Positions 12,189-61,300 of a stretch of 64,000 nucleotides of DNA are shown in pieces (positions within the stretch are counted from its first letter, which is position 1; every line of letters starts with the position of its first letter). Position numbers and translations under genes: made by a program. Source of the stretch: Podarcis liolepis (taxonomy: Eukaryota); assembly GCA_965112155.1 (NCBI GenBank), contig OZ218100.1; one strand, written 5' to 3'. The notes below the pieces were generated by a model that did no database searches, was not told the origin of the DNA, and worked only from the letters and a program-made list of their open reading frames with translations.

Positions 12189-12797
12189 TGTTGTTGTTGT
12201 TTAGTCATTTAGTCGTGTCCGACTCTTCGTGACCCCATGGACCAGAGCACGCCAGGCACTCCTGTCTTCCACTGCCTCCTGCAGTTTGGTCAAACTCATG
12301 CTGGTAGCTTCGAGAACACTATCCAACCATCTCATCCTCTGTCATCCCCTTCTTCTTGTGCCCTCAATCTTTCCCAGCATCAGGGTCTTTTCCAGGGAGT
12401 CTTCTCTTCTGATGAGGTGGCCAAAGTATTGGAGCCTCAGCTTCAGGATCTGTCCTTCCAGTGAGCACTCAGGGCTGATTTCCTTAAGAATGGATAGGTT
12501 TGATATTCTTGCAGTTCATGGGACTCTCAAGAGTCTCCTCCAGCACCATAATTCAAAAGCATCAATTCATCAACGATCATCCTTCTTTATGGTCCAGCTC
12601 TCACTTCCATACATCACTACTGGGGAAAACATAGCTTTAACTATATGGACCTTTGTTGGCAAGGTGATGACTCTGTTTTTTAAGATGCTGTCTAGGTCTG
12701 TCATTGCTTTTCTCCAAAGAAGCAGGTGTCTTTTAATTTCGTGACTGCTGTCACCATCTGCAGTGATCATGGAGACCAAGAAAGTAAAATCTCTCAC
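12189..12797 (-). mobile_element. BovB (RTE) LINE, 5'-truncated
   Basis: (CAA)n tail; ORF 12570-12812 gives RDFTFL..ITADGDSSHEIKRHLLL..PVVMYGSESWTIKK, the BovB ORF C-terminal region; near-identical to 22435-22850. Confidence 0.95.
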
Positions 12798-21417: not shown

Positions 21418-22434
21418 AAAGATTCCATCACATGTGTAACCCATGACACAATACGTAATTAAAAATGCAGGCAGTCCTGGTTATACTGTGCTGGAAGCCA
21501 ATGGACAACCCTCACCCCCTGCTCCCAATCTGTAGCTTGCAGCCACATCTCAGGTACATTAAGGCCAAGTTCCTTCTTCAGCTCATACAGCTGAATTCCT
21601 TTTCTTTCCTTTTGATCTATCCCTTCATGTGTAAGGGATACAAGTGAATGCTACCAGACCACCTGTTTTGGTTTTACCCTTAACTATGTTTCAGGAAGCT
21701 TTTAAAAGTTCCTTTTCAAAAGAGCTTATAGATGCTCACTGTGACAAAGTTTGAGAAGTCCTAGTTTAATTAAATGAAGCTGTTTCCTGAAATACTTATT
21801 TTTCCGTCATATAACTGAGCTAACACAGCAAGCGCTGGGATTCAGTTGTCTGTTCTGCACTTCAAATATTCAAGGGTTGCAATTGTACTTCCCTTTGATT
21901 TTATTGTAATGGTGAAAAGATTCAACATGTGAACACTCCACATTGAGGGGAGTTGGATTTTTCCATTGCTTGGGTACATAAGCCAAATGTTCTGTTGACT
22001 TACACTCCATGTCACCTCTCTATAGTCAGTGTGAAGCCATTATTAGACAGATTTCAAGCAAGATCTGAATCACATTACCACAGTAATTTCTGTTTGAACA
22101 AAAGGCAGCTATTTTTTCCCCCACAACGTTTTAATGACAGCACCTAGGGTAGTCCAACATTGTGTTAATATCTTTCAAAGGCAAACAGCTGAGACTGCAT
22201 AGACTGACAACCATCTTTAAAAAAAAACAACATGGTTGGAAATTAGACGCTACTTTCAGACTTATGTGCACTAAGAGGGCTGAATAGATTTAAACTTTCT
22301 TCTCCTGCATTGCCATGATACATACTATTACTACTACATGATGACATTTCTGTAGTAGCAGTAGTGTTCTAGGCTTAATCAGTGATGAGGAACCTCGGGT
22401 GTTGGAGCCAATTGTGACTCTCTATACCAGGCAT

Positions 22435-22850
22435 GGAAGTGAGAGCTGGACCATAAAGAAGGCTGATCGCCGAAGAATTGATGCTTTTGAATTATGGTGC
22501 TGGAGGAGACTCTTGAGAGTCCCATGGACTGCAAGAAGATCAAACCTATCCATTCTTAAGGAAATCAGCCCTGAGTGCTCACTGGAAGGACAGATCCTGA
22601 AGCTGAGGCTCCAATACTTTGGCCACCTCATGAGAAGAGAAGATTCCCTGGAAAAGATCCTGATGTTGGGAAAGATGGAGGGCACAAGGAGAAGGGGACG
22701 ACAGAGGACGAGATGGTTGGACAGTGTTCTCAAAGCTACAAACATGAGTCTGACCAAACTGCAGGAGGCGGTGGAAGACAGGAGTGCCTGGCGTGCTCTG
22801 GTCCATGGGGTCACGAAGAGTCAGACATGACTAAACGACTAAACAACAAC
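22435..22850 (+). mobile_element. BovB (RTE) LINE, 5'-truncated
   Basis: GSESWTIKKADRRRIDAFELWCWRRLLRVPWTARRSN..LRLQYFGHLMRR; (CAA)n tail; TSD ATACCAGGCAT at 22424-22434 / 22851-22861. Confidence 0.97.
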
Positions 22851-22854
22851 ATAC

Positions 22855-25642: not shown

Positions 25643-28093
25643 TTTATTATTATTATTCACTTTAACACACCAAAAAAGAAAAAGACATTTATCGGTATAC
25701 ATCAACACAATACAAAAAGAAAAATAATGAACCAAATAATAAGCACATAATGTTAAAATAAAGATGTTCTTTTTCTATAGACCAGACTTCCCGTCCGCTC
25801 CTTACTTCAATTATTCATCATTAATTTGCTGCCAGTACATAACAAGTTATTATTATAATTTAGTAAGTTTTAATCTATCTTAAGTCTTACATTATACTGG
25901 AAACTGCTACTGAAATTATTCAAAAGCTGCAACAGACTTTAAACTACAATAATTATTTTTCAAATAAATTTTGAAGACTTCCCATCTTGATTTTTTCTTG
26001 ATTTTTTCAGACAAGCTGTCTAGTTCCGCGTATTCAGCCAATTTTTGAATCCATTCTAGTCTTGAGGGGACTTTATCACTCTTTCAATTTGACACAATAA
26101 GAACTCTTGCTGCGACTGTGGCCTATAAAAATATATCTCTTACCTTTTTGGGAATGTCTGAATCTGTAATTCCCAAAAGGAAAGCTTCTGCTATTTTTAT
26201 TAAAGGGGATTTTTAATATTTTTTCTAGCTCTAAATGGATATCCTCCCCAAACACCTTAATTTCTTTACACTGCCACCACACATGGTATAGAGTACCTGG
26301 CTTTTCTTTACCTCTCCAGCAATTGCTTGGGATGCTTTTATACATTTTAGAAAGTTTCCAAGGGGTTAAATACCACCAATGTTGCATACCACAGTCTTTA
26401 TTGCATATGTACAAGAAACACCTACAGTTCAGGATTACATGTCCGAACCCGTTGAGTCAGATTCAGGGAGTGGCTTCCTTCAATTCCCGCACCAGCAAAG
26501 TAGATGTGGGAATCATGCAAGACATCTTTGATCCTTACGTTTCACTTCCCTCCTTGTCTGTGCTGAAGCCCCCTGCCTTCCAGAGTCTGAGCTCCCTTCC
26601 CGAGCTTCTGGGCGATTGAAGGGCTCCACAGAATCCCTGAGCCCTTCCTCCTCCTGGCAAATCTCCACCCTCTCTTCTACTTTCTCTACCTCTGGGTGGT
26701 TGAAGGGCTCCACAGCATCCCTGAGCCCCTGCTCCACCTCTTCTGTCACTTGCTCCTCCGAATTCTCCCTGACACCAAGGCACTTTGGGCTCAAACAAAT
26801 TTTTGTTTTTCCCCCAGACCGCAAATAACAATTTCCTGACAATATGGTTTGAGAAATTTCTATGAACTTTAGCTTTCCCATAAACTAAATGCACGTTCCA
26901 TCCCCATCAGTTATCAAAACCCTCCAAGTCTAAGAGGGCCAGGTCTTGCAACGTACACCACTCCTTTAACCAGGTGAAGCAGGCTGCCTCATAATATAAT
27001 TTCAGATCAGGCAGGGAAAAGCCTCCTCTGTCTTTTATATCAATTAAAATTAGATGTTTAATTCTGGGTCTTTTCCCTTGCCATAAAAATTTGGAAATGT
27101 CTTTTTGCCAATTCTTGAGACAGCCCGCTCCACCCAGTATCAGAATCATTTGAAATAAAAATATTTGTTTGGGAAGCACGTTCATATTTATAATGGAAAT
27201 CCTGCCCAGAAACGAAAGCTTCAACCTACTCCAAATCTCAAGATTCCTTTTAATCTCTAACCAAGTTTTCATATAATTGTCCTGGAATAAATTTATATTT
27301 TGGGGGGTAATCCATATGCCTAAATACTTTGCTTTGTGGCATATCTTCAGGCCCAATGTTTTTTCTAAATCTTCCTTCTCCTGTGCTGGTACATTTTTGA
27401 CCAGCAGTTTTGTTTTAGTGATGTTCAGTTTGAAACCTGCCACTTCTCCAAAGTTTTTGATCAATTCTAACACTCTCATCAAACTTTCTTTAGGATTTTC
27501 GGTCATAATAAGTAGGTCATCGGTGAATGCCTTGAGTTTGTATGCTTTATTCCCCAGAGTAATACCTCTGACAAGCTGGTCTTCTCATATCCTGGTATTC
27601 AGGACCTCCATCACTAGAATAAATATCAGTGGTGATTTTCACCAAGTCCAATTTCTTGTATTAATTTTTTCATAAACTTCCAGGAGATGTTATCAAATGC
27701 CTTTTCAGCATCGACCAGCATAATAGCTGCTGGTTTATCAGCTTTATAATTGAAGTATTCTAATGCATTGATCACACATCTGAGATTGGTTTGCATATAA
27801 CGTCCTGGGAGGAACCCGGTTTGATCTTTGTAGATTATTTCTTTCAGAACTGTTTTCAGCTTGTTTGCAATGATGTCAGCAAAAATCTTATAATCGTTAT
27901 TTAACAGGGTGATAGGCCTATAGTTTGCAGTAATTAAGGCTCTGTTCCCTGTTTATGGATGAGGGTGATGAAACTTTCCACAAATTCGGTAGCATTCCAT
28001 TTGTGAGAATATCATTCATTATATCTTTCATATGTAAGAATAGTGATTCTTCTAATTTTTTTTGTAATAAATAGCTGGGAAACCATCAGGACC
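25643..28093 (-). mobile_element. L1 LINE, 5'-truncated and decayed, ORF2 from GPDG through RT to the C-terminus, plus 3' UTR
   Basis: ORF 26907-27506 (FGEVAGFKLNITKT..KYLGIWIT..LSFLGRISIINMNVLPK..FLWQGKRPRI..GGFSLPDLKLYYEA); ORF 26076-26414 (WYLTP..CWR..GTLYHVWWQC); 16-bp TSD TGATCTTG(G/A)GCAACTT at 25627-25642 / 28094-28109. Confidence 0.95.
26430..26774 (-). mobile_element. Partial LTR-like insert inside the L1
   Basis: GC-rich non-L1 block starting TGTCAGG on the minus strand at 26774; internal 29-bp direct repeat TTGAAGGGCTCCACAG(A/C)ATCCCTGAGCCC at 26616 and 26700; left boundary approximate. Confidence 0.6.
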
Positions 28094-49552: not shown

Positions 49553-50613
49553 TGGTAAGTCCCAGGTAAGTGTGTAGCTTCAGTCACTTAGCTGTGACAC
49601 TATGCTTTCAGGTGGGTTCCCAGACCCCACTTCTAGATAGAAGTATCCTATTAATGCATGACATTATAGACTTGTTCCTATCCCCGTTAAAAGAATGAAA
49701 CATGTGGAAGATATGGAGATATGACAAATATCTGTGAAATCATGTTCACCATCTCACCATAGTATTGAATACTATTCTTTGGTCTCTGGATTTTCAAGCA
49801 AGCACTGAACATTTGTCAGATTACGCTCCTATGAATGGTAGCTAAATACTTTGCTCCACCAAACAATATGTCAGCGTAAATATGTGCAATTTATTACTGA
49901 CATACATGTCAAGCAATTTGTGGTTTTTTTGGGCAATGGGCACAGAAGAGAAAGCTCAGGATGGTCTGCTTTTTTCAAAGCATGCTGGAACTGCAAGAAA
50001 TAGAATGTAATCAAATTCTCATTTCCTAATCAAGTCTGACTGGAAGCCAAGAGAAATCAGCCATAGCTGCAATAGCAATAATCACATTCTAAGTGAGCTG
50101 TTGAATTTAGCAAGATTAGTAATATAGAGTCTGAAGGGATCAAGAGGCCAGTGTTCAGCCTCCTACTGCGAGGCAGGACAATCTATCCCTCAGCCCTGCC
50201 ACAGATCAGTCAAATGACCTGTCAAATGTGATATGGACCAGTCTATTGTACAGAGGGAATAAGTGCAGAGGTGCACTCTCTAAAAGTTGCCAGCGGGACA
50301 ATTAACTCAGCTGAAACATGTGCAGAATAACACTACAGATGTTTACTGAGAAATAAGACCTAGTGAATTCAATAGAGCTTACTTCCAGCAGTAGGTTATG
50401 TATAGGACTGTAGCCTGTACTGTTGTGCTTTCATTATTGAGGCTCTTATGTTCTGAACATCATCATCAAAAATGGTTCTGTGGCATCCACAGCCTTGATC
50501 CAGAGGCAATTATGTACAAAAGGCAGTGGCACATGATATGAAAGGTATTTCTGCTTTTGCTGTAAAGCATTATGTGCACTGGCACTGAAAAAAAATGCCT
50601 TGTTCTTGGCTAC

Positions 50614-51398
50614 TGATACGGAACGGAAGGGGGGGGGGCTCCTTTCCCCCTTCCTTCTAGGAACATCCGAGGCCCCGCTTATTCCTATGGCCCCGCTTTA
50701 GCCAATCACAGACCTCCTGTTACAATGTATCCATTCTGTTTCTGCTTTTGCCCTATAGTACAGAATGGGTTTGAAATCATTGAAATCTTTAAAAATTGAT
50801 ATAAAATCAACCGTAACTCCAATTTCTTCGCTCTCAGTGTCATTCAACTCAGTTCCCCGTGGGCTCCATAATGCTATCCCTACTTCCATAATCCTCGAAG
50901 CGGCAGGTCACGTACGCAGGAACTTCTTAATTTGCCAAACCTTCCCTCTAGGCAATATTAGGTGGCAGACGATGCATATCTCTGACCCATTGTCTTGCCA
51001 CCACCGGTACTCAATAAATGTGTATCTATGTATATTTCCCGCTCCGCATATCCCCCCTCCCTCATCCGAAAATGCTAATTAATGTAATCCCACCTTTTCA
51101 TAATGTATTCATGACGTGTAAAGTATATTCATGATGTAACTTGTGAAACCCAACCTTCCCATAATGTATTCGTGACGTTTCATGCACTGTATTCTGGGAT
51201 ATGGAGGGAAATTTCAAAAGTTCATGTCACCCCTTTCTCTGGGTTCAATCTCGCCTTGAACCTGTTGCGCAATAAACTTGGATCTTCTGCAGTTTGCTCC
51301 TGCGTCCGGCTGAGCTCATTTTCTTCCGCAGGGACCCACGGACTTAGTCCGATGAGCTGGGTGGCAGAGTAACACTGCACCCAGATTTTTCCGTAACA
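50614..51398 (+). repeat. 5' LTR (785 bp)
   Basis: TGATACGGAA...TTCCGTAACA inverted termini (9/10), AATAAA 51271-51276. Confidence 0.97.
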
Positions 51399-51400
51399 GT

Positions 51401-51419
51401 TGGCGCCGCAACGTGGGGC
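51401..51419 (+). promoter_or_regulatory. Primer-binding site for tRNA-Lys(CUU) (Lys1,2)
   Basis: TGGCGCCGCAACGTGGGGC is the canonical TGGCGCCCAACGTGGGGC with one extra G, 2 nt after the LTR. Confidence 0.93.
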
Positions 51420-51611
51420 TTGCGGTTCTCCCGAGCTGCTGACTGGGGGCCCCGAAATCTTCAGCCGGCTCCGGGCCATTTTGCCTGGGAAGATCCTTTT
51501 GGACCCCCAGCCATCTTCTGGGCGGTAATCGAAAGCCCTAGGAGTTCAGCCGGGGAGCAAAAGAGGGATCCAGCCGGCTTATTCATCGATCCCGGGATCA
51601 TCATAGAAGAC

Positions 51612-51620
51612 GCGTGAGTA
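51612..51620 (+). promoter_or_regulatory. Candidate major splice donor in the leader
   Basis: GC|GTGAGTA about 200 nt downstream of the PBS, the usual position in retroviral leaders. Confidence 0.55.
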
Positions 51621-53620
51621 TAAGGAAAAAGGAAAATCCAGTGCACTGGTGGGAAGGGGGTGGAATCTCCTGGCAACTGAATTCTCTGCCCTCCTCTCTA
51701 TCGCTCCTTCTTGCCTTTCTCTTGGTCCGGTTAGTGAGAGAGACCGTGGACCGCTGCTCAACCCGAAAGGGGGGTTCTGAGCTCTATCTCTTTTCCTTAA
51801 AATCTCCAGCCAGCCGCACCAATTGGGAGCCCGAAAGTAAGACGGTGAGACCCGGCTTGGAAAGACAGCCGACTCTCCGCAACGGGCATCTCAGTTGAAA
51901 GCAAGGGGTTGGAGCTCTCTTTCCGAACTTCTCTAGCGCCCGGCAAGGGGGCGGGAAGTGGTCTTGCTTTCTATCCCAATCCCAGCCGCACTGGTCGGTA
52001 ACACGTGTATCGTGCGTGAGCCCGCTTCCAAAAGCAAGGGGGATTTTCAGTTCGAAATTCTATCCAGGGATCACCCGATCTGGCACCGCATGGCGCGGGC
52101 GTCCAGTAGGGCCCCTTTTCCTGAGATGTGACGATAGGTAGGAGGTTGCCAGGAGGGATAGCCCATGAGGAATTGGGCAGGACCGGCAGAGTGGAAAGAG
52201 ACCCCAGGTTATAGGAAATAAGGAAATAGGAAAGGGAACGCAAGGAACCGGATAGCTAGAGCTCTCTAAAACCCACTAAGGAAGTTGCCAGGCAACTAGA
52301 AGCCCCTTCTCCTCTTTACTATACGTCCCTGTACTAAGCATACCAAACCCCTAGACATACCAATCCTAATCAACCCCTCTCTTTCCCCCTTCTCTATCCC
52401 AGACACCCCCCCCCCAAAAAAAAGAAGGAAAAAGCAAAAAAGCAACAACAGCAACGCATGCATCTATAAAGGGGTATCCAGTCGACCAAGCGTTATGAGC
52501 CCTACCAGTTTGATTAACTGGTGGTGTGTTTGAAGAGGCAAGGAGGCTCATAAAACCATGTGGGACCTTCCTACTAATTTCACTTAATGAAGCCAGAGGT
52601 AGTGGCCCAACTCCTTGCAATAACCAACTAAAGGATGAGAATATATCTGTTTATATGTTACATGTTGTCTGTTATGTGTGTTGTCTGTTAATACATATAT
52701 GAGAATATGTATGTTTACATGTTGTCTGTTATGTGTGTTGTCTGTTCCTTCTGTCTCTGGCAGACTGCTTTTCTTAAGTGTGCATAGTTTAAACTGCAAG
52801 CTTGCTTCAAAATTTAAATCTAAGGAAGCCATGCTGGATCTTAGCAGTCCTAAATAAGACAAGATGAGAATGAAGTGTGCAAATGTTTACCCCACCTCTT
52901 GCTTTGCCCCAACTTTTGAGATTGTGAGTCTACAGTCTTATTTTGGAAGGTGATGATAACCTAATGTTTCTGCTGCAAAAGCCTAGTTGAGCACAACTGC
53001 TCGCTCAAGCTAAAATGCAGTGTATGTATTTCATTAAGCGTATGCCCATAAAAGTATGGTGTTCATTCTAAGAAAAAATATTTGAGTCCAGTTTTAACTT
53101 TGATCTGGTTGGACAGAAGAGTTATTGTAAGGCTCCTGATATCAGTCTCTATAAGACGTCCTGGCCTCTTTTCTTAGAAAATGCCCCCCCCCCCCTTGTT
53201 TCATTCTGCCTCTTTCAGGTTTTTTTTTTCCTTCTTATTCTGTGCCAGGTAAATTTACTCCCGAGTAAGCTTCCTTTAAAGGAAACTGCAAAGGTGGGGG
53301 GGGGGCATAGATTAGGCTTACTATTCCTCTGCAAGTTCAGGAAAAATTGTCACTTTTGTATTCCTTTTAAATCAAATCTATGGCTGTTTTAACTATGCTT
53401 TATAAGAGATCCTCTACCTATCTTAGGAAAAATGTTCACTTCAGTCTTTAAAGATAATTTATCTAGGAACTTTCACTCTTTAGTCTAAGGAAGTAAACAC
53501 TCACTCAAACTAGCTTCAAGATCTGCTAAAAGGGTTGGGTACTTTTATTTTCCTCTTCCTTAGTACATGATAGGCGCATGGCTTGTGGTCTCTTCCCCAG
53601 TTGTGTCTGTGTACATAAGT

Positions 53621-53904
53621 ATGTGTGTGTTTCTGGTAGTACAAATCTTGCTATGAACCCTGTATTTTAGGGTTGGACTAGATGACCCCAGGTCCCTTTC
53701 AACTTTCCCAATTTGTGGCTGATGAGTTGAAATCCAGCCCAGATTTGCTCTTTGTTTTTAAAGGTGAGAGGTGAATGTGTGTGTTTCTGGTAGTACAAAT
53801 CTTGCTATGAACCCTGTATTTTAGGGTTGGACTAGATGACCCCAGGTCCCTTTCAACTTTCCCAATTTGTAGCTGATGTGTTGAAATTCAGCCCAGATTT
53901 GCTC
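53621..53904 (+). repeat. Two ~130-bp direct repeats (154-bp period), each with a CR1-type 3' tail motif
   Basis: Copies 53621-53750 and 53775-53904; GGGTTGGACTAGATGACCCCAGGTCCCTTTCAACT at 53670 and 53824. Confidence 0.9.
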
Positions 53905-54113
53905 ATGATGTTTGAAACAGAACTGGTGATATCAGGCATTTGAGTGATTACAGTATTTATCATTTTGTCTACTATTAAAAAAAAAAAATCAAACTTAAAA
54001 GTCTATTAAAAGTTTAAGCACATAAAAATTCATATAGTTAAGTAGAATTAGCCTTGACCATGACTGAGAATGTTAAAAAAAACTAAATAAAAAATCCTAT
54101 GAATTCTAACTCT

Positions 54114-54496
54114 CTGGCCATTTTTACTCATAAATAAGAGAGCGGTTGATTGTTCCGCGAATGGCCAGAGGGATATTAGCCCTTTCCTGTACATAAAGGA
54201 AGCAGACTCCTTTGCTTGGGCTGAATGGTGAATACTTGAATTGCTGAGTTTCTCTTTTTTGTTTTAAAATCTAACCCTATTTTAAAAATCTACTCCTTAC
54301 CTGGCCATTTTTACTCATAAATAAGAGAGCGGTTGATTGTTCCGCGAATGACCAGATAAAATGACCAATAATGATAGCCCTTTCCTGTACATAAAGGAAG
54401 CACTCCTTTGCTTGGGCTGAATGGTGAATACTTGAATTGCTGAGTTTCTCTTTTTTGTTTTAAAATCTAACCCTATTTTTAAAATCTACTCCTTAC
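54114..54496 (+). repeat. ~187-bp tandem duplication
   Basis: CTGGCCATTTTTACTCATAAATAAGAGAGCGG...AATCTACTCCTTAC at 54114-54300 and 54301-54496. Confidence 0.92.
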
Positions 54497-54888
54497 CTTT
54501 CCCTTCCTTATTCTAATTGAGCCAAAAGATGCAACATTTTCAATGGTATAAAAGGTTTGCTGAGGCATGAACTCTGCACATGCACAGAGGCTAGATCAGC
54601 TTACAAAAGAGAGAGAGAGAGAGAGAAAGGAGGGGGGGGGAGAGAGAAGGTTTGGAGAGCCTGAAACCTATACAAATTTCCTTATGTAAAACCTTGAACC
54701 ATTGAGGGAAATCACCCTTAATGTGTTTTGCTCCAGGGCTACTTAAGACAATAAAGTTAAGTACTGGACATGCCAAATTCTTTTCACAGGTAAATATCAA
54801 AGCACTCCCACTGTGAGTTCCTCTCTTGAGTAGTTCCCCCCCCCCATGGGATTTAAATTTTATAAGTTTTTTTTTTTTTTGTGTGTGT

Positions 54889-55043
54889 GTGTGTATATGC
54901 CTATGCATTTAGGAACAGCATTTCCTGACAAACCTCTCACATGAAAATTTTTTCCCTTTCAACAGGTGTGTATATGCCTATACATTTTAGGAACAGCATT
55001 TCCTGACAGACCTCTCACATGAAATAATTTTCCTTTTTAACAG
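54889..55043 (+). repeat. ~77-bp tandem duplication, each unit ending in a pyrimidine tract plus AACAG
   Basis: GTGTGTATATGCCTAT..AGGAACAGCATTTCCTGACA..AACAG twice. Confidence 0.88.
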
Positions 55044-56024
55044 AGTGTCCTTTCTTTTCTCCCACAGCACAAATGATAATGAGGGGATGCAAACAGTGAT
55101 TTAAATACTCTATAAAAAGTAATTGCATTTGTTTTTCTTTTGTCTTTCTTCCCTTAAAGCCAAACAGTCACTTTCTTTCTGTTCAGCAAAACAAGTCTGA
55201 ATCCCTGCTATATTAGTTGATTTCCTTCTATCTCTTTGTGGCTTTGACATTTTTTTTTAGGTTACAAATAATCTGTTTTCGTTTATCAAGTTCGTTTTAT
55301 TAGTTCTTCCATTATATATATGAAATTAATCGAAGCACAACCAAACATTGTTTGTGGAATGGTATTTGTTTACCTTTGGCCTGAGCATTTCTTACTAATT
55401 CTGTCATTTTGGCTAGTGCAAGGTACCTGCACAACTTTAAATTGCCATTCATTTTTATTGGTATTAACTCATTTCCCAGTATTCCGCTATTAACATTACA
55501 GCTGATGTCACATCAAGAAACACTTTTATTTTCATTTGGGATGTTAGAATGCCAAAACAGATTACTTCAGGTTACTTATTAATGGTGTGTCTTAGCATTT
55601 ATTTATTTTTGATTCCTCATAGCTCATTTTGTGTGTGTGTGTTCTACTTTAGGGACATGTTCATCACATGCTGAAAGTCAGTTTCATGAAGTTCTTTTAT
55701 CAGATAGCACATGGTGAATTTTAAGTTTTTCCCCATTGTTTTCCCATTTTTTTCAGTCTAGTAGTAATCTGCGTGGTTTTGATAATATATTTAATAATAA
55801 TTCTTTTCTAAATCTGATGTCCTTGTGTCAAGTTTGTTTTCATCTGACTGGTAATCTAATTTTTTGCTTTCTTTTGTATTTTTTAACCTTTGTATTTTTT
55901 ACAGTTCTCTTTCTATACATGTGGAGTAATTTTATTTTATAATATGAAAAGAACAACAACAAAAACTAAGTGAAGGAAAGCAAACAAACTTAGCAGATAA
56001 TAACAGTAATTATGTGGAAATGTG

Positions 56025-56110
56025 ATAATAAATAATAATAAATAATTTTATTTATATCCTGCCCTCCCCAGCCGAAGCTGGGCTCAGGGCGGCTAACAAC
56101 AATCAAAATA
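56025..56110 (-). mobile_element. L2-type LINE/SINE 3'-tail fragment inside the LTR element
   Basis: (AAT)n then TTTATTTATATCCTGCCCT...CTCAGGGCGGCTAACA, same tail architecture as 20615-20660 and 49330-49376. Confidence 0.7.
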
Positions 56111-57603
56111 GTCCAATAATGATAATGAATAAAATGTTTAATCCACTAAGATTGTTATTATTTGCAGCTTCCCATGGAAACTGGAGGACATCCTTTTTGC
56201 CTTTTGCCCCTTCCTTGTCTGTGTCTTTAAGTCTCCCCAAAAACCCTGCCCCCTTACAGGATATCACTTCTACAGATGTGCAATGATGAAAAGGAGCAAC
56301 AACCCCTCAGTTCTTCGCCATCACAAGACCAGCAACACCAGAGTTTTCAAAGTGCCCACAGCTATCTCTTTCAAAGGATATAGACTGAGGGGGGAGTGGG
56401 GCTGACAAAGGGGGGGAGGAGTTGAACTGACAAAGGGGGGAGGAGTTGAATTGCAAGGACATTTTCTCACTTTTGAAACTCAAGCCTCTGTGCTCCAGGA
56501 TTCAAAAGATACATACGTAAAAGATCACAATTGTGTCAAGATATGCAACAGATATTTAATTATTTTGTTTTGTATTATGTGTTATTATGTAAGAATGTTG
56601 AAATGTGTCTGACAGTGTGATTTCCACAAAGGGGGGCAATTTATTGTGTGTAATTGTTTTTATGTTTTATGTCTTATTGCTTACACACCAATGGAGAATT
56701 CTCATGCATTTTATACTTTCTAATAGCTCACACTATTGTGTAGTCCAATGTTTAGATAACCACAATTCGTTGTCCCACCTGGCACTATGCCAACCTTCCC
56801 TACCCATTTTAAAAAATGTGCTAAAACTTGCTTTACCAAGGAGAAGCTTCTAAGAAACATGAAGGTGGATATGCTTTGGTTTAGCAGGAATGATTTCTTA
56901 TAGACTTAAATTGACTTATTTGGACAACTGCCCTTGTTAAGAATGGTTTTCTTTTAACAGATTGGTTTGAAGAGTTGAGAACCATGGGGCAAGATAAATT
57001 CAAATTGGACTCAGTTTGAATTGGGCAAGTGTATCCAGGCTGCAATTAGCCTTTTGGTCCTTTAAGTGCAAGTGAGCAACCCCCATGCGTGCAAAACCAC
57101 AGCCTATAATAGAATCCCATAGCTAAAGGCCAAGGCGAAGACCTCTCCCTCACGAGATGCCCAAACCTGTGCCAGCTATGGTGAATGCCAGGCGACATGG
57201 TTAAATGAAAGCCCTGAGGGGATTCAACAGACAGGATGTGTTGCTGTAGCACTATGTCAGTGTGAGACCACAGAAGAGCTACCTTGACACCTGAGAACAC
57301 ACAAATGGCGGGGGGGGGGAGCCAACTGCATTTTTCAGTCAATTAGACCTTCCTGCTAGGTGTAAAGCATAAAACACTATTGAGAATGCCACAACTAATT
57401 TAGCAACAAAATACAAGAGGTGTTCTTTATATAATACCCTATATGCAGCTACCTGCACTGCTATACTTGCAAATGACCGTAAGAGGCATGGCTTGCAAGT
57501 CCCTTTCAGGTTTGCATAAAGCCACACATCCCATTCACCGAGATTTAGGGTGCGGAGAAAAGATTTGCAAGTTCTTACAGAACTTTAATGCAAATCTATC
57601 TCC

Positions 57604-57614
57604 GAATGGGGGAC
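57604..57614 (+). promoter_or_regulatory. Short polypurine-tract-like sequence
   Basis: GAATGGGGGAC directly before the TG of the 3' LTR. Confidence 0.6.
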
Positions 57615-58397
57615 TGATACGGAACGGAAGGGGGGGGCTCCTTTCCCCCTTCCTTCTAGGAACATCCGAGGCCCCGCTTATTCCTATGGCCCCGCTTTAG
57701 CCAATCACAGACCTCCTGTTACAATGTATCCATTCTGTTTCTGCTTTTGCCCTATAGTACAGAATGGGTTTGAAATCATTGAAATCTTTAAAAATTGATA
57801 TAAAATCAACCGTAACTCCAATTTCTTCGCTCTCAGTGTCATTCAACTCAGTTCCCCGTGGGCTCCATAATGCTATCCCTACTTCCATAATCCCCGAAGC
57901 GGCAGGTCACGTACGCAGGAACTTCTTAATTTGCCAAACCTTCCCTCTAGGCAATATTAGGTGGCAGACGATGCATATCTCTGACCCATTGTCTTGCCAC
58001 CACCGGTACTCAATAAATGTGTATCTATGTATATTTCCCGCTCCGCATATCCCCCCTCCCTCATCCGAAAATGCTAATTAATGTAATCCCACCTTTTCAT
58101 AATGTATTCATGACGTGTAAAGTATATTCATGATGTAACTTGTGAAACCCAACCTTCCCATAATGTATTCGTGACGTTTCATGCACTGTATTCTGGGATA
58201 TGGAGGGAAATTTCAAAAGTTCATGTCACCCCTTTCTCTGGGTTCAATCTCGCCTTGAACCTGTTGCGCAATAAACTTGGATCTTCTGCAGTTTGCTCCT
58301 GCGTCCGGCTGAGCTCATTTTCTTCCGCAGGGACCCACGGACTTAGTCCGATGAGCTGGGTGGCAGAGTAACACTGCACCCAGATTTTTCCGTAACA
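57615..58397 (+). repeat. 3' LTR (783 bp)
   Basis: Matches the 5' LTR by eye except G8 vs G10 near the start and C57894 vs T50895. Confidence 0.97.
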
Positions 58398-61300
58398 GCT
58401 ACATTAGGAGTAAAGTGTTCAGATAAAGGTTATCGGTGGTGGAGGCAGGAATATATATGTGTGTGTACAATACCCATTAAAGGCCCAGCTCATAGCTGTA
58501 TATCTTGAATAAAGTGGAAAGGCGTGTGGGCCATGCCACAGCACCTCAGACCCTGTGTGAGATGGGGGGAAACTCTACATCTGCTTACAGAACTGTCATC
58601 AATGGGAGCCCATGTGTATGCGGGGCTTTGGAATGCAACCAAGTTTACTTTGAAGTGCCACAAATTAAGTCTAACATAATTTGAGATATCACACAACAAA
58701 ACACACTCTCAGGGGGGAAATTAGTTGGCTCGATAACACCATATAGCTTTCTTCGAGAACCAAATTTGCTGCATAACTAATTGGCAAATTAGCAAGTTAT
58801 CAGCTCTGGGTTTGGGAGGAAAGGGGAAGTAAAAGAACAGACAGAGATTACATGGAAGTCTTTTATTATAGGCTCCTTACAGAAGTTATCAGTAAAAGGT
58901 ATTAAACATTCACCACACTAATTATTGAATGTAATTCAGAGCCAGTTGGGGTTAGAAGAACTGGAAAAGTGATACAGCTGAAAACTCAGTAGACCACCTT
59001 CATATTCTGCTCTAGTTATGATTTCACAAACAAGCCAGCACTTTTAGATTTTAAAAAGAAGAAAAACAATATGCAGTTGATGTTATTTTCATCAGAAAAA
59101 AACAGTAAGTGCAAGGAATATGCAGAATAATCATTATTATTAAATAAAATTTGGCATCATATTTTTGTATTAGAGAAAAGCAGAGATGTAATTTGCAATA
59201 AATAAGGATTCACAAGTTTTACTGCAATCAGCTTCACATTTACTTTTATTTTAATCCAGTCATCTCAGAATTATGTCCACCAATTGGGCAGAAGCTTTGG
59301 AGTGGAGACTTGTCTCTTAGGATCAAACCATTCCACACTGCAGGCTTCGGTGAGATTTTTATTCACTTTCTACATATAGAAACCAAAGCTGATAATTAGG
59401 GACTTTTCCAGGCCATCCAGAAAGGACATTGGCAAGTTAATATTTTACTGATCTCCTAAATCATTCCTTTGAATTGGGTGGGTTATATTTACATTGTTGC
59501 TGTTACATTAAATGTGGGGTGGCATGAGTATTCAAAAATGTAAGGCTAAAAAAAGCAACCCTCTCGCACCAACATGCGTGCTTCATTTGGAATTGGATCC
59601 AGACCTATCTGGATTTGGCTTGAAATGGGGTTCCCTTTCCACCTCACCCATCCTCTGTTCAAAAAATACTACTACTACTACTACTAATAATAATAATAAA
59701 ATGCACCCTTACCTTTCTGGTAGTGGAAGAGCTCAACAGTCTTGACTGAGTGATCAAATCCGCAGCCTGAACATGCTTAGGAACCTTACTGCAAGCTATG
59801 AAGCTGGTCAGTTGGGCAGGCAGACTGGTTACTCAGCCTGAAAAGGGCAAACAAACCATCCATCCCTGGATGGTTTGTTTTCCTGACACACACAAGTATA
59901 TTATTGTGAAGGAGAAAGAAACTGGCAAAGGGGTGTGTGTGCAAAATTCTGATGGATAGCTTTTGAGGTAAGCAAGAAGTTCTTAAATTATAAACTATGG
60001 AGAGCATGTATAATTGAAAAAGCAAGAGAGGGCACATCTTCAAAAAGTGAAGGGGGAGATAAACATGGAGAGAGTATTTTAGAAAATTATACCATCTCAT
60101 GTCTTGAGAGTCCTGGACTCACTCGTATGTGCCCTGAAAGTCTAGGATTTTGTCCTAATGCAGATTTCACCAAGTTGGTGCTCACCAGATGTTTTTGACT
60201 ACAACTTCCATCATCTCTCACCATTGGCTGTGCTGGTTGGGGCTGATGGAAGTTGTAGTCCAAAACATCTGGAGGGCCCCAGTTTTGTAAAAGTATCACA
60301 GGATCCCCTCTAATGTCCATACCTGTTACTGTGAGTTCAAAATTTATGAATTGCTATTTGTCGCAGAACGCCTCTTTAAGACTATTTGGTGTGCATTGGC
60401 AAGCTTCTCTGTTTAAAAGTGAGGTATTTCATTTTACCAGGGTCCCTTCATGGTCTCAAGTTCTTCACTTCTGTTGGGCTTATTTCAGAAAAGTATAGGT
60501 GAAAAATACAGTTTTCACCACTTCGTGAGCAGAAATCCCCAAGAGTCTTATTCATTTGAAATATAATATGCACAGAAAGAGTATGAAATGAAGTCTCAGT
60601 GTGTGAACTCTCAGTGTTACACTCACCTTGCCACCACCACACACACATACACACAAACTCTTCCTCATCTTTTATCTGCATGGTACATTCCTGATCCAAG
60701 AGAGGATTTGTAGTGCAATTAATGAACATTAATAGAAACATTAGCAAATGCCAAAACTGTTTCTCCTTGACTTGGTAACAGCAATTCACATCACACAAAA
60801 CGCAGGAAAACAATAAAAGATTATAAAGATTATATAACAGGATAGAAAGATGGGCCCTGATTGTATTTTTCTAAAACTTTAAGGCTTTTAGAAGGTTTAT
60901 TCTGACCTTTACATGCATATTTAACTATTCTTTATATAATGCTGCAATTATTGTGCAGTCTAAGTAGATTATCATTTGTTTATATTTGAGATTATAGGGG
61001 GTTTTGTCACATTTTAAAAAATGTAATACTGGCGGTTTATGAATCAGCATTTCTGTCACCCTGTTCCAGTTTTTTGAGAAGTAGCTACAAATATTACCTC
61101 AATGCTTGGACAGATATATATGACCTTGGGGAAATTAACTGATCAAAGCCCAGTTTTCACAATATTCATCTCATCCTTATTAGATTTACATGGTGGATCT
61201 CTTCTTTGGCTATTTATGGGAAAACATGAGGCCAAGTCTAAATGGAAGGCCGAATCTAAATAAATCTTGGGGAATAGGAGACAGGAATTCAAGTCCCACC

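Follow-up and report, generated by a model that had tools for sequence, protein, structure and literature searches.

Mouse and koala provide the best-known cases of active non-autonomous endogenous retroviruses (ERVs) that have a coding partner. The element discussed here lies in a 64,000-nt stretch of Podarcis liolepis DNA (contig OZ218100.1 of assembly GCA_965112155.1), called the window below, and occupies positions 50614-58397. Its paired long terminal repeats (LTRs), primer-binding site (PBS), polypurine tract (PPT) and target-site duplication (TSD) are all intact; it has no coding capacity, its copies are dispersed and it has a coding relative, which places it among the non-autonomous LTR retroelements of the ETn/VL30-like functional kind. 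The reading that we favor, with a probability of roughly 0.8, is that it belongs to a young non-coding LTR family that is mobilized in trans by the Gag-Pol of a class I ERV and whose central core is swapped between helper shells.

Koala recKoRV1 (PMC6112702) joins the 5' LTR and gag leader of a young gammaretrovirus to a foreign, largely non-coding interior (PhER), followed by an env end and 3' LTR. It depends on the integrase of a helper and has TSDs of its own. The lizard element has the same architecture of helper-type LTR and leader, foreign interior and helper-type env end and LTR; it has its own TSDs and would likewise depend on a helper integrase. However, recKoRV1 involves one donor and one virus, whereas here one core is found in three shells with helper-related ends and the cores appear to be still exchanging. 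Mouse ETn (PMC6466679, PMC2265474, PMC7472051) is similarly non-coding (5.5-6 kb), polymorphic, Lys-primed and accompanied by a coding partner, MusD. Switching between Lys3 and Lys1,2 occurs in ETn/MusD, and two copies of the present family have a Lys3-like PBS. MusD is betaretroviral and lacks env, whereas the helpers here are class I with an open env, so that with a class I helper (env frame of 684 codons) and an LTR match of 84% at best the element is not of the ETn/MusD type proper. In the literature examined, the ETn interior was not seen to be described from LTR shells unrelated to its own. Mouse VL30 (PMC4859993) is class I, 4-6 kb long, without coding capacity and flanked by a 4-bp TSD; its varied LTR lengths, several PBS types and co-packaging with murine leukemia virus (MLV) are further points of likeness. 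VL30 retains decayed regions related to gag and pol and the core described here shows none, which sets the element apart from VL30 proper. It also differs in that the genome here contains, for each PBS/LTR type, a distinct coding group that matches it.

Plant large retrotransposon derivatives (LARDs) are non-autonomous and have a large non-coding interior between LTRs, but they derive from Ty3/gypsy elements, whereas the helper here is a retrovirus with env. An initial annotation of the window had likened the element to LARDs and to VL30/ETn. The likeness to ETn is close; recKoRV and ETn are closer parallels than LARDs because the core is common to two other LTR shells. What goes beyond the known systems is that the core also resides in the shells of two further, distantly related ERV groups of the same genome. 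Neither a reptile case nor a core common to three ERV groups was found in the literature searched, which was covered at listing level with most subscription papers outside reach. This genome offers three young coding class I groups, three non-coding families with one core, and near-identical natural pairs that differ at the PBS, such as L011/L127 and L014/L012. Observation alone could therefore address two questions: the extent of cross-packaging between divergent retroviruses in a germ line, and whether, outside mammals, the propagation of individual copies depends on PBS-directed silencing by KRAB zinc fingers or tRNA fragments.

Structure and spread of the element

The 5' LTR (50614-51398, plus strand, 785 nt) runs from TG to CA and has an AATAAA at 51271; the 3' LTR (57615-58397, plus strand) measures 783 nt. 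Global alignment of the two gives T50895/C57894 and two extra G at 50629-50630 as the only differences, exactly those read by eye in the initial annotation. The perfect GCTAC duplication that it reported is present on both sides (50609-50613 and 58398-58402), as are the PBS, the PPT-like tract and the LTR ends. The PBS (51401-51419, plus strand) lies behind a 2-nt GT spacer, has one inserted G at 51408, and is of the tRNA-Lys1,2 type, a label taken from a table in PMC1084362. It is followed by a retroviral leader (51420-52406, plus strand) with a donor-like GTGAGT at 51614 and an acceptor-like AG at 52402. A non-coding linker (52407-52759, plus strand), which overlaps the start (52699) of a 52-codon open reading frame (ORF), is seen only in shell A, the shell with the LTR type of the window element. 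The shared non-coding core (52760-57386, plus strand; GC 0.37, CpG observed/expected 0.17) is also found inside LTR shells B and C. Three internal duplications in it, of 154 nt (53621-53916), 187 nt (54114-54498) and 78 nt (54889-55048), all given on the plus strand, are present in some copies only. At 56025-56107 the core contains a fragment of a very abundant host repeat, with 79-88% matches outside the family copies and a spike in read depth. The last env codons, a 65-nt 3' signal and the PPT occupy 57535-57614 (plus strand), with the G-rich tract ending at 57614. The stretches at 53640-53705 and 53795-53860, which we take to resemble the 3' end of a CR1 long interspersed nuclear element (LINE), had no match outside family copies in 1.07 Mb of fetched DNA.

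The longest stop-to-stop frames of the interior are 118 and 106 aa, and 200 shuffles give a mean longest frame of 111 aa. The longest ATG-started frame has 105 codons, in agreement with the limit of about 105 aa noted earlier. No Pfam family was matched in any of the six frames of the interior, translated with X at stops, at E up to 1, and the four Rfam matches on the element all fell far under the gathering score. A tblastn search for gag, pol and env gave nothing across 52406-57535 (best E 1.0; 0.37 anywhere in the interior), nor did narrow and broad gag/pol/env profiles match there; the narrow profiles detected an unrelated ERV at 23-38% identity. The initial annotation had recognized no gag, PR, RT, IN or env in the interior, and had regarded clear degenerate homology over most of it as a finding that would speak against a non-autonomous element. 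Such homology is absent from the interior body in the tblastn and profile searches, but the first 1.0 kb proved to be a retroviral leader, and the last ~80 nt consist of an env end and a 3' signal from a coding ERV. Interior GC is 0.38 and CpG observed/expected 0.17, against 0.42 and 0.21 in host flank and 0.53 and 0.64-0.68 in helper genes; the composition is host-like and not helper-like. Judged by homology, the interior between the leader and the 3' end is foreign to the helper.

The source assembly is 1.57 Gb. An LTR search gave 1,035 first-pass candidates, of which 40 were scored, and copy counts cover the fetched loci. At least 72 copies have the leader together with the beginning of the non-coding interior, which bears out the expectation of several copies with the same interior and different TSDs and does not fit a single-copy interior. 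Both LTRs were resolved in 49 copies, whose interiors are 4,989-6,217 nt long. LTR-pair and TSD counts refer to 47 copies, with one older copy and one tandem duplicate left out of the LTR-pair count. Their LTR pairs differ by 13 substitutions in 32,791 nt, and 34 of the 47 are substitution-free. Seven copies at other sites, with other TSDs, diverge from the window copy by no more than 0.7% over 4,771 columns of the interior. The interiors are segmental mosaics; for example, the window copy differs from L011 by 0.8, 2.5, 11, 18, 4, 7, 0.2 and 0% along its length. TSDs in the 47 non-tandem copies are of 4 bp in 27 and of 5 bp in 15, with five imperfect, and helper copies show the same mixture of 4 and 5 bp.

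The five imperfect TSDs (right junctions of L012, L017, L019, L045 and L109, with the left junction of L077 listed alongside) all start with G or GT directly after the 3' LTR, which are the letters of the LTR-PBS spacer. TSDs beginning with G make up 7 of the 15 five-bp and 3 of the 27 four-bp duplications (p 0.02). This suggests that an unpaired viral end dinucleotide may sometimes be retained during repair, as has been proposed for one site of the xenotropic MLV-related virus XMRV (PMC2857682). At L025/L026 (G000:C11:3.293-3.307 Mb) the element forms a head-to-tail tandem array with LTRs in common and an inverted LTR adjoining.

Sequencing runs under seven organism labels contain 46-65% of the sampled element words. 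No RNA run is recorded among them, which counts neither for nor against transcription. The initial annotation had proposed looking for an empty allele at the GCTAC site. In two other samples (label A), contigs track the left flank to exactly 50613 and then continue for 1,241 or 1,290 nt off the element; if the remainder is right flank, their ends would fall at 59643 and 59692, in a microsatellite or next to it. These contigs strongly suggest an empty allele in both samples. The family is a current source of insertion polymorphism. RNA reads from a run with another species label (label F; 90% likeness, about 12% of one run) cover the element, and their first mates are mostly on the minus strand. 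First-mate depth on the minus and plus strands is 18.7 versus 1.3 in the LTR and 16.5 versus 0 near 56900, with none on 49576-50439, and five reads start at 51291, just past the AATAAA. Given the usual library convention, these reads would stem from sense transcripts of elements related to this one. The listing for this raw RNA run contains no splice joint.

Coding relatives and a core in three shells

A search for the Lys PBS that allowed for a one-base insertion found 108 sites, of which 100 were listed. Forty were fetched, and they yielded a coding group with matching LTR and leader, group A. It has Gag_p30, RVP, RVT_1, RNase_H, rve, MLVIN_C and TLV_coat domains; gag and pol are in frame across one stop, and the env frame has 684 codons. 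The best PDB match (E 7e-162) is a full-length RT p80, which we take, partly from neighboring matches, to be of MLV type. By its Gag_p30, gag-pol stop, MLVIN_C, TLV_coat and MLV-like RT, group A is classed as a class I ERV of gamma/epsilon-like kind. A foamy-virus helper, suggested by the PBS and the 4-bp TSD, was dropped on the helper domain content and the MLV-type RT match. In each of 17 group A copies that were extended as far as both LTRs, the LTR pair is 99.5-100% identical; three long frames are present in 14 of them.

The 5' LTR of the element is 75-84% identical to group A LTRs over ~700 nt, with ~350 nt of the group A U3 absent. The leader is homologous to just short of the gag ATG (84-87% over ~1,030 nt when compared with the nearest two helper copies). 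In the 65 nt that lead up to the 3' LTR, the element and a helper copy are 98% identical, and a 24-mer from this 3' signal is found exactly at 119 genomic sites, coding and non-coding alike. Three older family copies retain 36-48 codons of the env tail (best independent E-value 7e-10). Because LTR, 1-kb leader and 3' signal are held in common, group A is likely the helper of the window element. The leader likely holds the packaging signal. The gag-pol-bearing helper with related LTR and PBS that had been anticipated thus has a counterpart in a coding relative with the same PBS type and 3' signal, and the proposal of a large non-autonomous element using a helper retrovirus is supported, with trans-mobilization the probable route. 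A gag search found a further coding subfamily with a Lys3-type PBS. In L059:4147-8058 and related copies a tandem repeat of ~13 residues lies at the end of pol, and pol length varies between copies from 1,265 to 1,322 codons.

Two other candidates for the helper were set aside. The long ORFs inside three family copies belong to nested insertions (L031/L032, L033/L034 and L037) of a LINE-type endonuclease-RT, a Ty3/gypsy element, itself bounded by LTRs and a TSD, and a copia-type element. A second Lys1,2-primed class I family (LTR ~385 nt) has no LTR, leader or interior in common with the element. It is young and includes full-length and many internally deleted copies, two of them with an inserted C in the PBS (L051, L060, L061, L065, L068, L073-L075, L078, L082, L084, L085).

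A search with 55336-55914 returned sites missing from the PBS and PPT lists. Twelve were fetched (nine with shell B, one with shell C, one without an LTR pair and one ordinary copy), and all contain the stretch from 52760 to ~57386. Shell B LTRs are 704-780 nt long and identical within the element in 8 of 9 cases; LTR, leader and gag start are 72-85% identical to a second coding group, B, and only ~60% to the ends of the window element, and a B-type 24-mer has 43 exact matches. Among 20 further fetched loci of shell C, 13 have the core and two have long gag/pol/env frames, and the core-bearing elements are 79% identical to the coding C leader over 900 nt. Gag identity between coding groups is 50% for A-B and 40% for both A-C and B-C, and Pol identity is 61-68%. 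In a tree of 40 cores the shells are intermixed. In 7 blocks of 400 columns, a distance of at most 0.5% is found in 6 for the closest A-B core pair and in 3 for the closest A-C pair. The core has therefore been transferred from shell to shell on more than one occasion, and recently. Divergence is greatest in the cores of the shell C loci L185 and L186 (69-75% in parts).

The core may have been captured from host DNA, or it may be an older element that has eroded completely. Searches found no donor or host source locus: a repeat fragment of ~80-110 nt was all that matched in the 1.07 Mb fetched, and the 40 candidates that the genome searches score were all family copies. A host source is therefore unsupported by searches of this scope, which give no evidence of absence.

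Primer-binding sites and the proposed cycle

Of the 72 copies, 36 have the inserted G in the PBS, 8 an inserted T, 2 an inserted C and 3 another variant; 23 are perfect. None of the clusters of near-identical leaders (0 of 8 and 0 of 10) consists of perfect sites only, 21 of the 23 perfect copies have a variant neighbor within 1%, and PBS state is not clustered on the tree (Fitch 21, versus 19.8 when shuffled). The perfect sites are scattered among the variants much as tRNA-templated revertants would be. None of 14 genomic tRNA-like matches templates the inserted G, and a variant tRNA gene as its origin was rejected on this basis. All 39 listed sites with the inserted G were fetched, and no coding copy was among them. 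Shell C has a parallel pattern: its variant PBS contains a 4-nt insertion, and two copies are perfect. In PMC7472051, the commonest PBS of ETn/MusD is mismatched with perfect sites scattered, 50:50 reversion through copying of the tRNA is proposed, and an advantage of the mismatched PBS is ascribed to escape from silencing by tRNA fragments. In the lizard, variant-PBS copies appear to found new bursts, and the most likely reason, somewhat more probable than not, would be escape from PBS-directed silencing. The B/C-type PBS was left as non-Lys; its sequence is labeled Arg or Trp in PMC4724089. Two non-coding copies, L161 and L162, have a Lys3-like instead of a Lys1,2 PBS, the primer type of the second helper subfamily. 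At L070 (G000:C9:10.277 Mb) the LTR is followed by a PBS that runs into more tRNA-like sequence instead of a leader, as if reverse transcriptase had read beyond the 18-nt primer end.

A cycle can be proposed from these observations. The LTR would drive sense RNA, for which reads were seen only in the run of a relative, and the retained leader would allow this RNA to be packaged by helper Gag. tRNA-Lys would then prime reverse transcription despite the bulged PBS, and the scattered perfect sites suggest that about half of the daughters may inherit a perfect tRNA copy. The 4-5 bp duplications are consistent with integration by the helper integrase. When RNAs are co-packaged, template switching could reshuffle core segments within and between shells and so give rise to the mosaics.

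Several points weigh against this account. The searches turned up no near-identical LTR in any coding copy: the best of 8 helper LTRs reaches 84%, and other coding copies are 79-85% identical over LTR and leader, whereas ETnII and MusD LTRs are extremely similar (PMC2265474). For shell C only the helper leader was matched, and no helper LTR or PBS match was found. Cores of shells B and C are 2-8% apart and never under 2% in any 400-column block. The leader folds no better than shuffled sequence (z 0.07). The split of 23 perfect to 36 with the inserted G fits 50:50 (p 0.12) and does not itself show selection, and variant PBS sites are also found in coding group B copies and in the Lys3-type coding subfamily. 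The RNA reads come from another species label and those in the core are not assignable to a shell. Packaging, priming and co-packaging are steps that we infer.

Alternative explanations and other features of the window

Does the core do anything at all? We regard the chances as about even. The same mechanism could carry the core as a neutral stuffer, any filler of 4-6 kb being packageable, with the core common through hitchhiking and leaked between shells as the most abundant co-packaged RNA; this is an evenly balanced proposition. Its interiors remain within 5.0-6.2 kb, many segments are deleted in some copies, and core divergence by block is 1-13% without a sharp conserved island. Of 1,084 interior indels, 823 (76%) are non-triplet, against 33% in helper coding regions. 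The best-kept ORF, the one of 52 codons, remains uninterrupted in 47 of 49 copies, yet its variants are 15 nonsynonymous to 1 synonymous; a small spliced or secreted protein was set aside on this lack of purifying selection and on the label F RNA, with no splice joint listed. On the other side, one core is kept in three shells, whereas what spreads in the unrelated Lys-primed ERV family of this genome is simple internal deletions; the block 56557-57386 is retained in nearly all of 40 copies (occupancy 0.94-1.0); and the sense strand has 7 acceptor-like sites, compared with 1.9 expected from the flank. A more ambitious version would make the core a satellite-like RNA module, a parasite of retroviruses with a selected cis-activity (export, stability, packaging or escape from silencing). 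It would persist as one recombining gene pool spread over helper lineages, as divergent as 40% in Gag, between which it switches, with each shell evolving a bulged PBS that survives constant tRNA-templated reversion. We consider this version tentative and the less probable of the two.

Exchange outside virions, by ectopic gene conversion between genomic copies at the DNA level, is unlikely to be how core segments cross shells. The mosaic patterns do not by themselves indicate the route, and PMC6112702 names extra-virion recombination as an option for recKoRV. However, the LTR pairs of the mosaic copies are identical and their TSDs fresh, therefore each mosaic either was reverse-transcribed afterwards or arose during reverse transcription, and conversion cannot account for the initial entry of the core into shells with ends just ~60% alike. 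Much less likely still is that each family decayed from its own helper, the interior being the unrecognizable gag-pol-env of that helper. Env-tail remnants in the three older shell A copies and gag-start remnants in shell B do indicate ends derived from coding viruses, but these remnants stop at the core borders, profiles able to detect an unrelated ERV find nothing in the core, the composition is that of the host, and core identity between shells reaches up to 99-100%, against 40-50% for their Gags. Direct descent of the core from its own helper is thus already contradicted, while an older fourth element as its ancestor is possible. An old single insertion with LTRs homogenized by conversion, or an assembly collapse, has a negligible chance of being correct: the low CpG content of the interior is all that speaks for it, and it is opposed by the seven close copies at other sites, the apparent empty site in two samples and the presence of the element in runs under seven organism labels. 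Mobilization in trans with exchange of the core between shells is preferred over all of these.

Elsewhere in the window, no host gene was recognized among 20 ORFs of at least 115 aa. A 419-nt inverted repeat pair, 95% complementary, lies at 12192-12610 and 22433-22851, 9.8 kb apart. An ORF at 26910-27584 on the minus strand has a partial RVT_1 match (E 1.5e-7) and is probably a LINE fragment.

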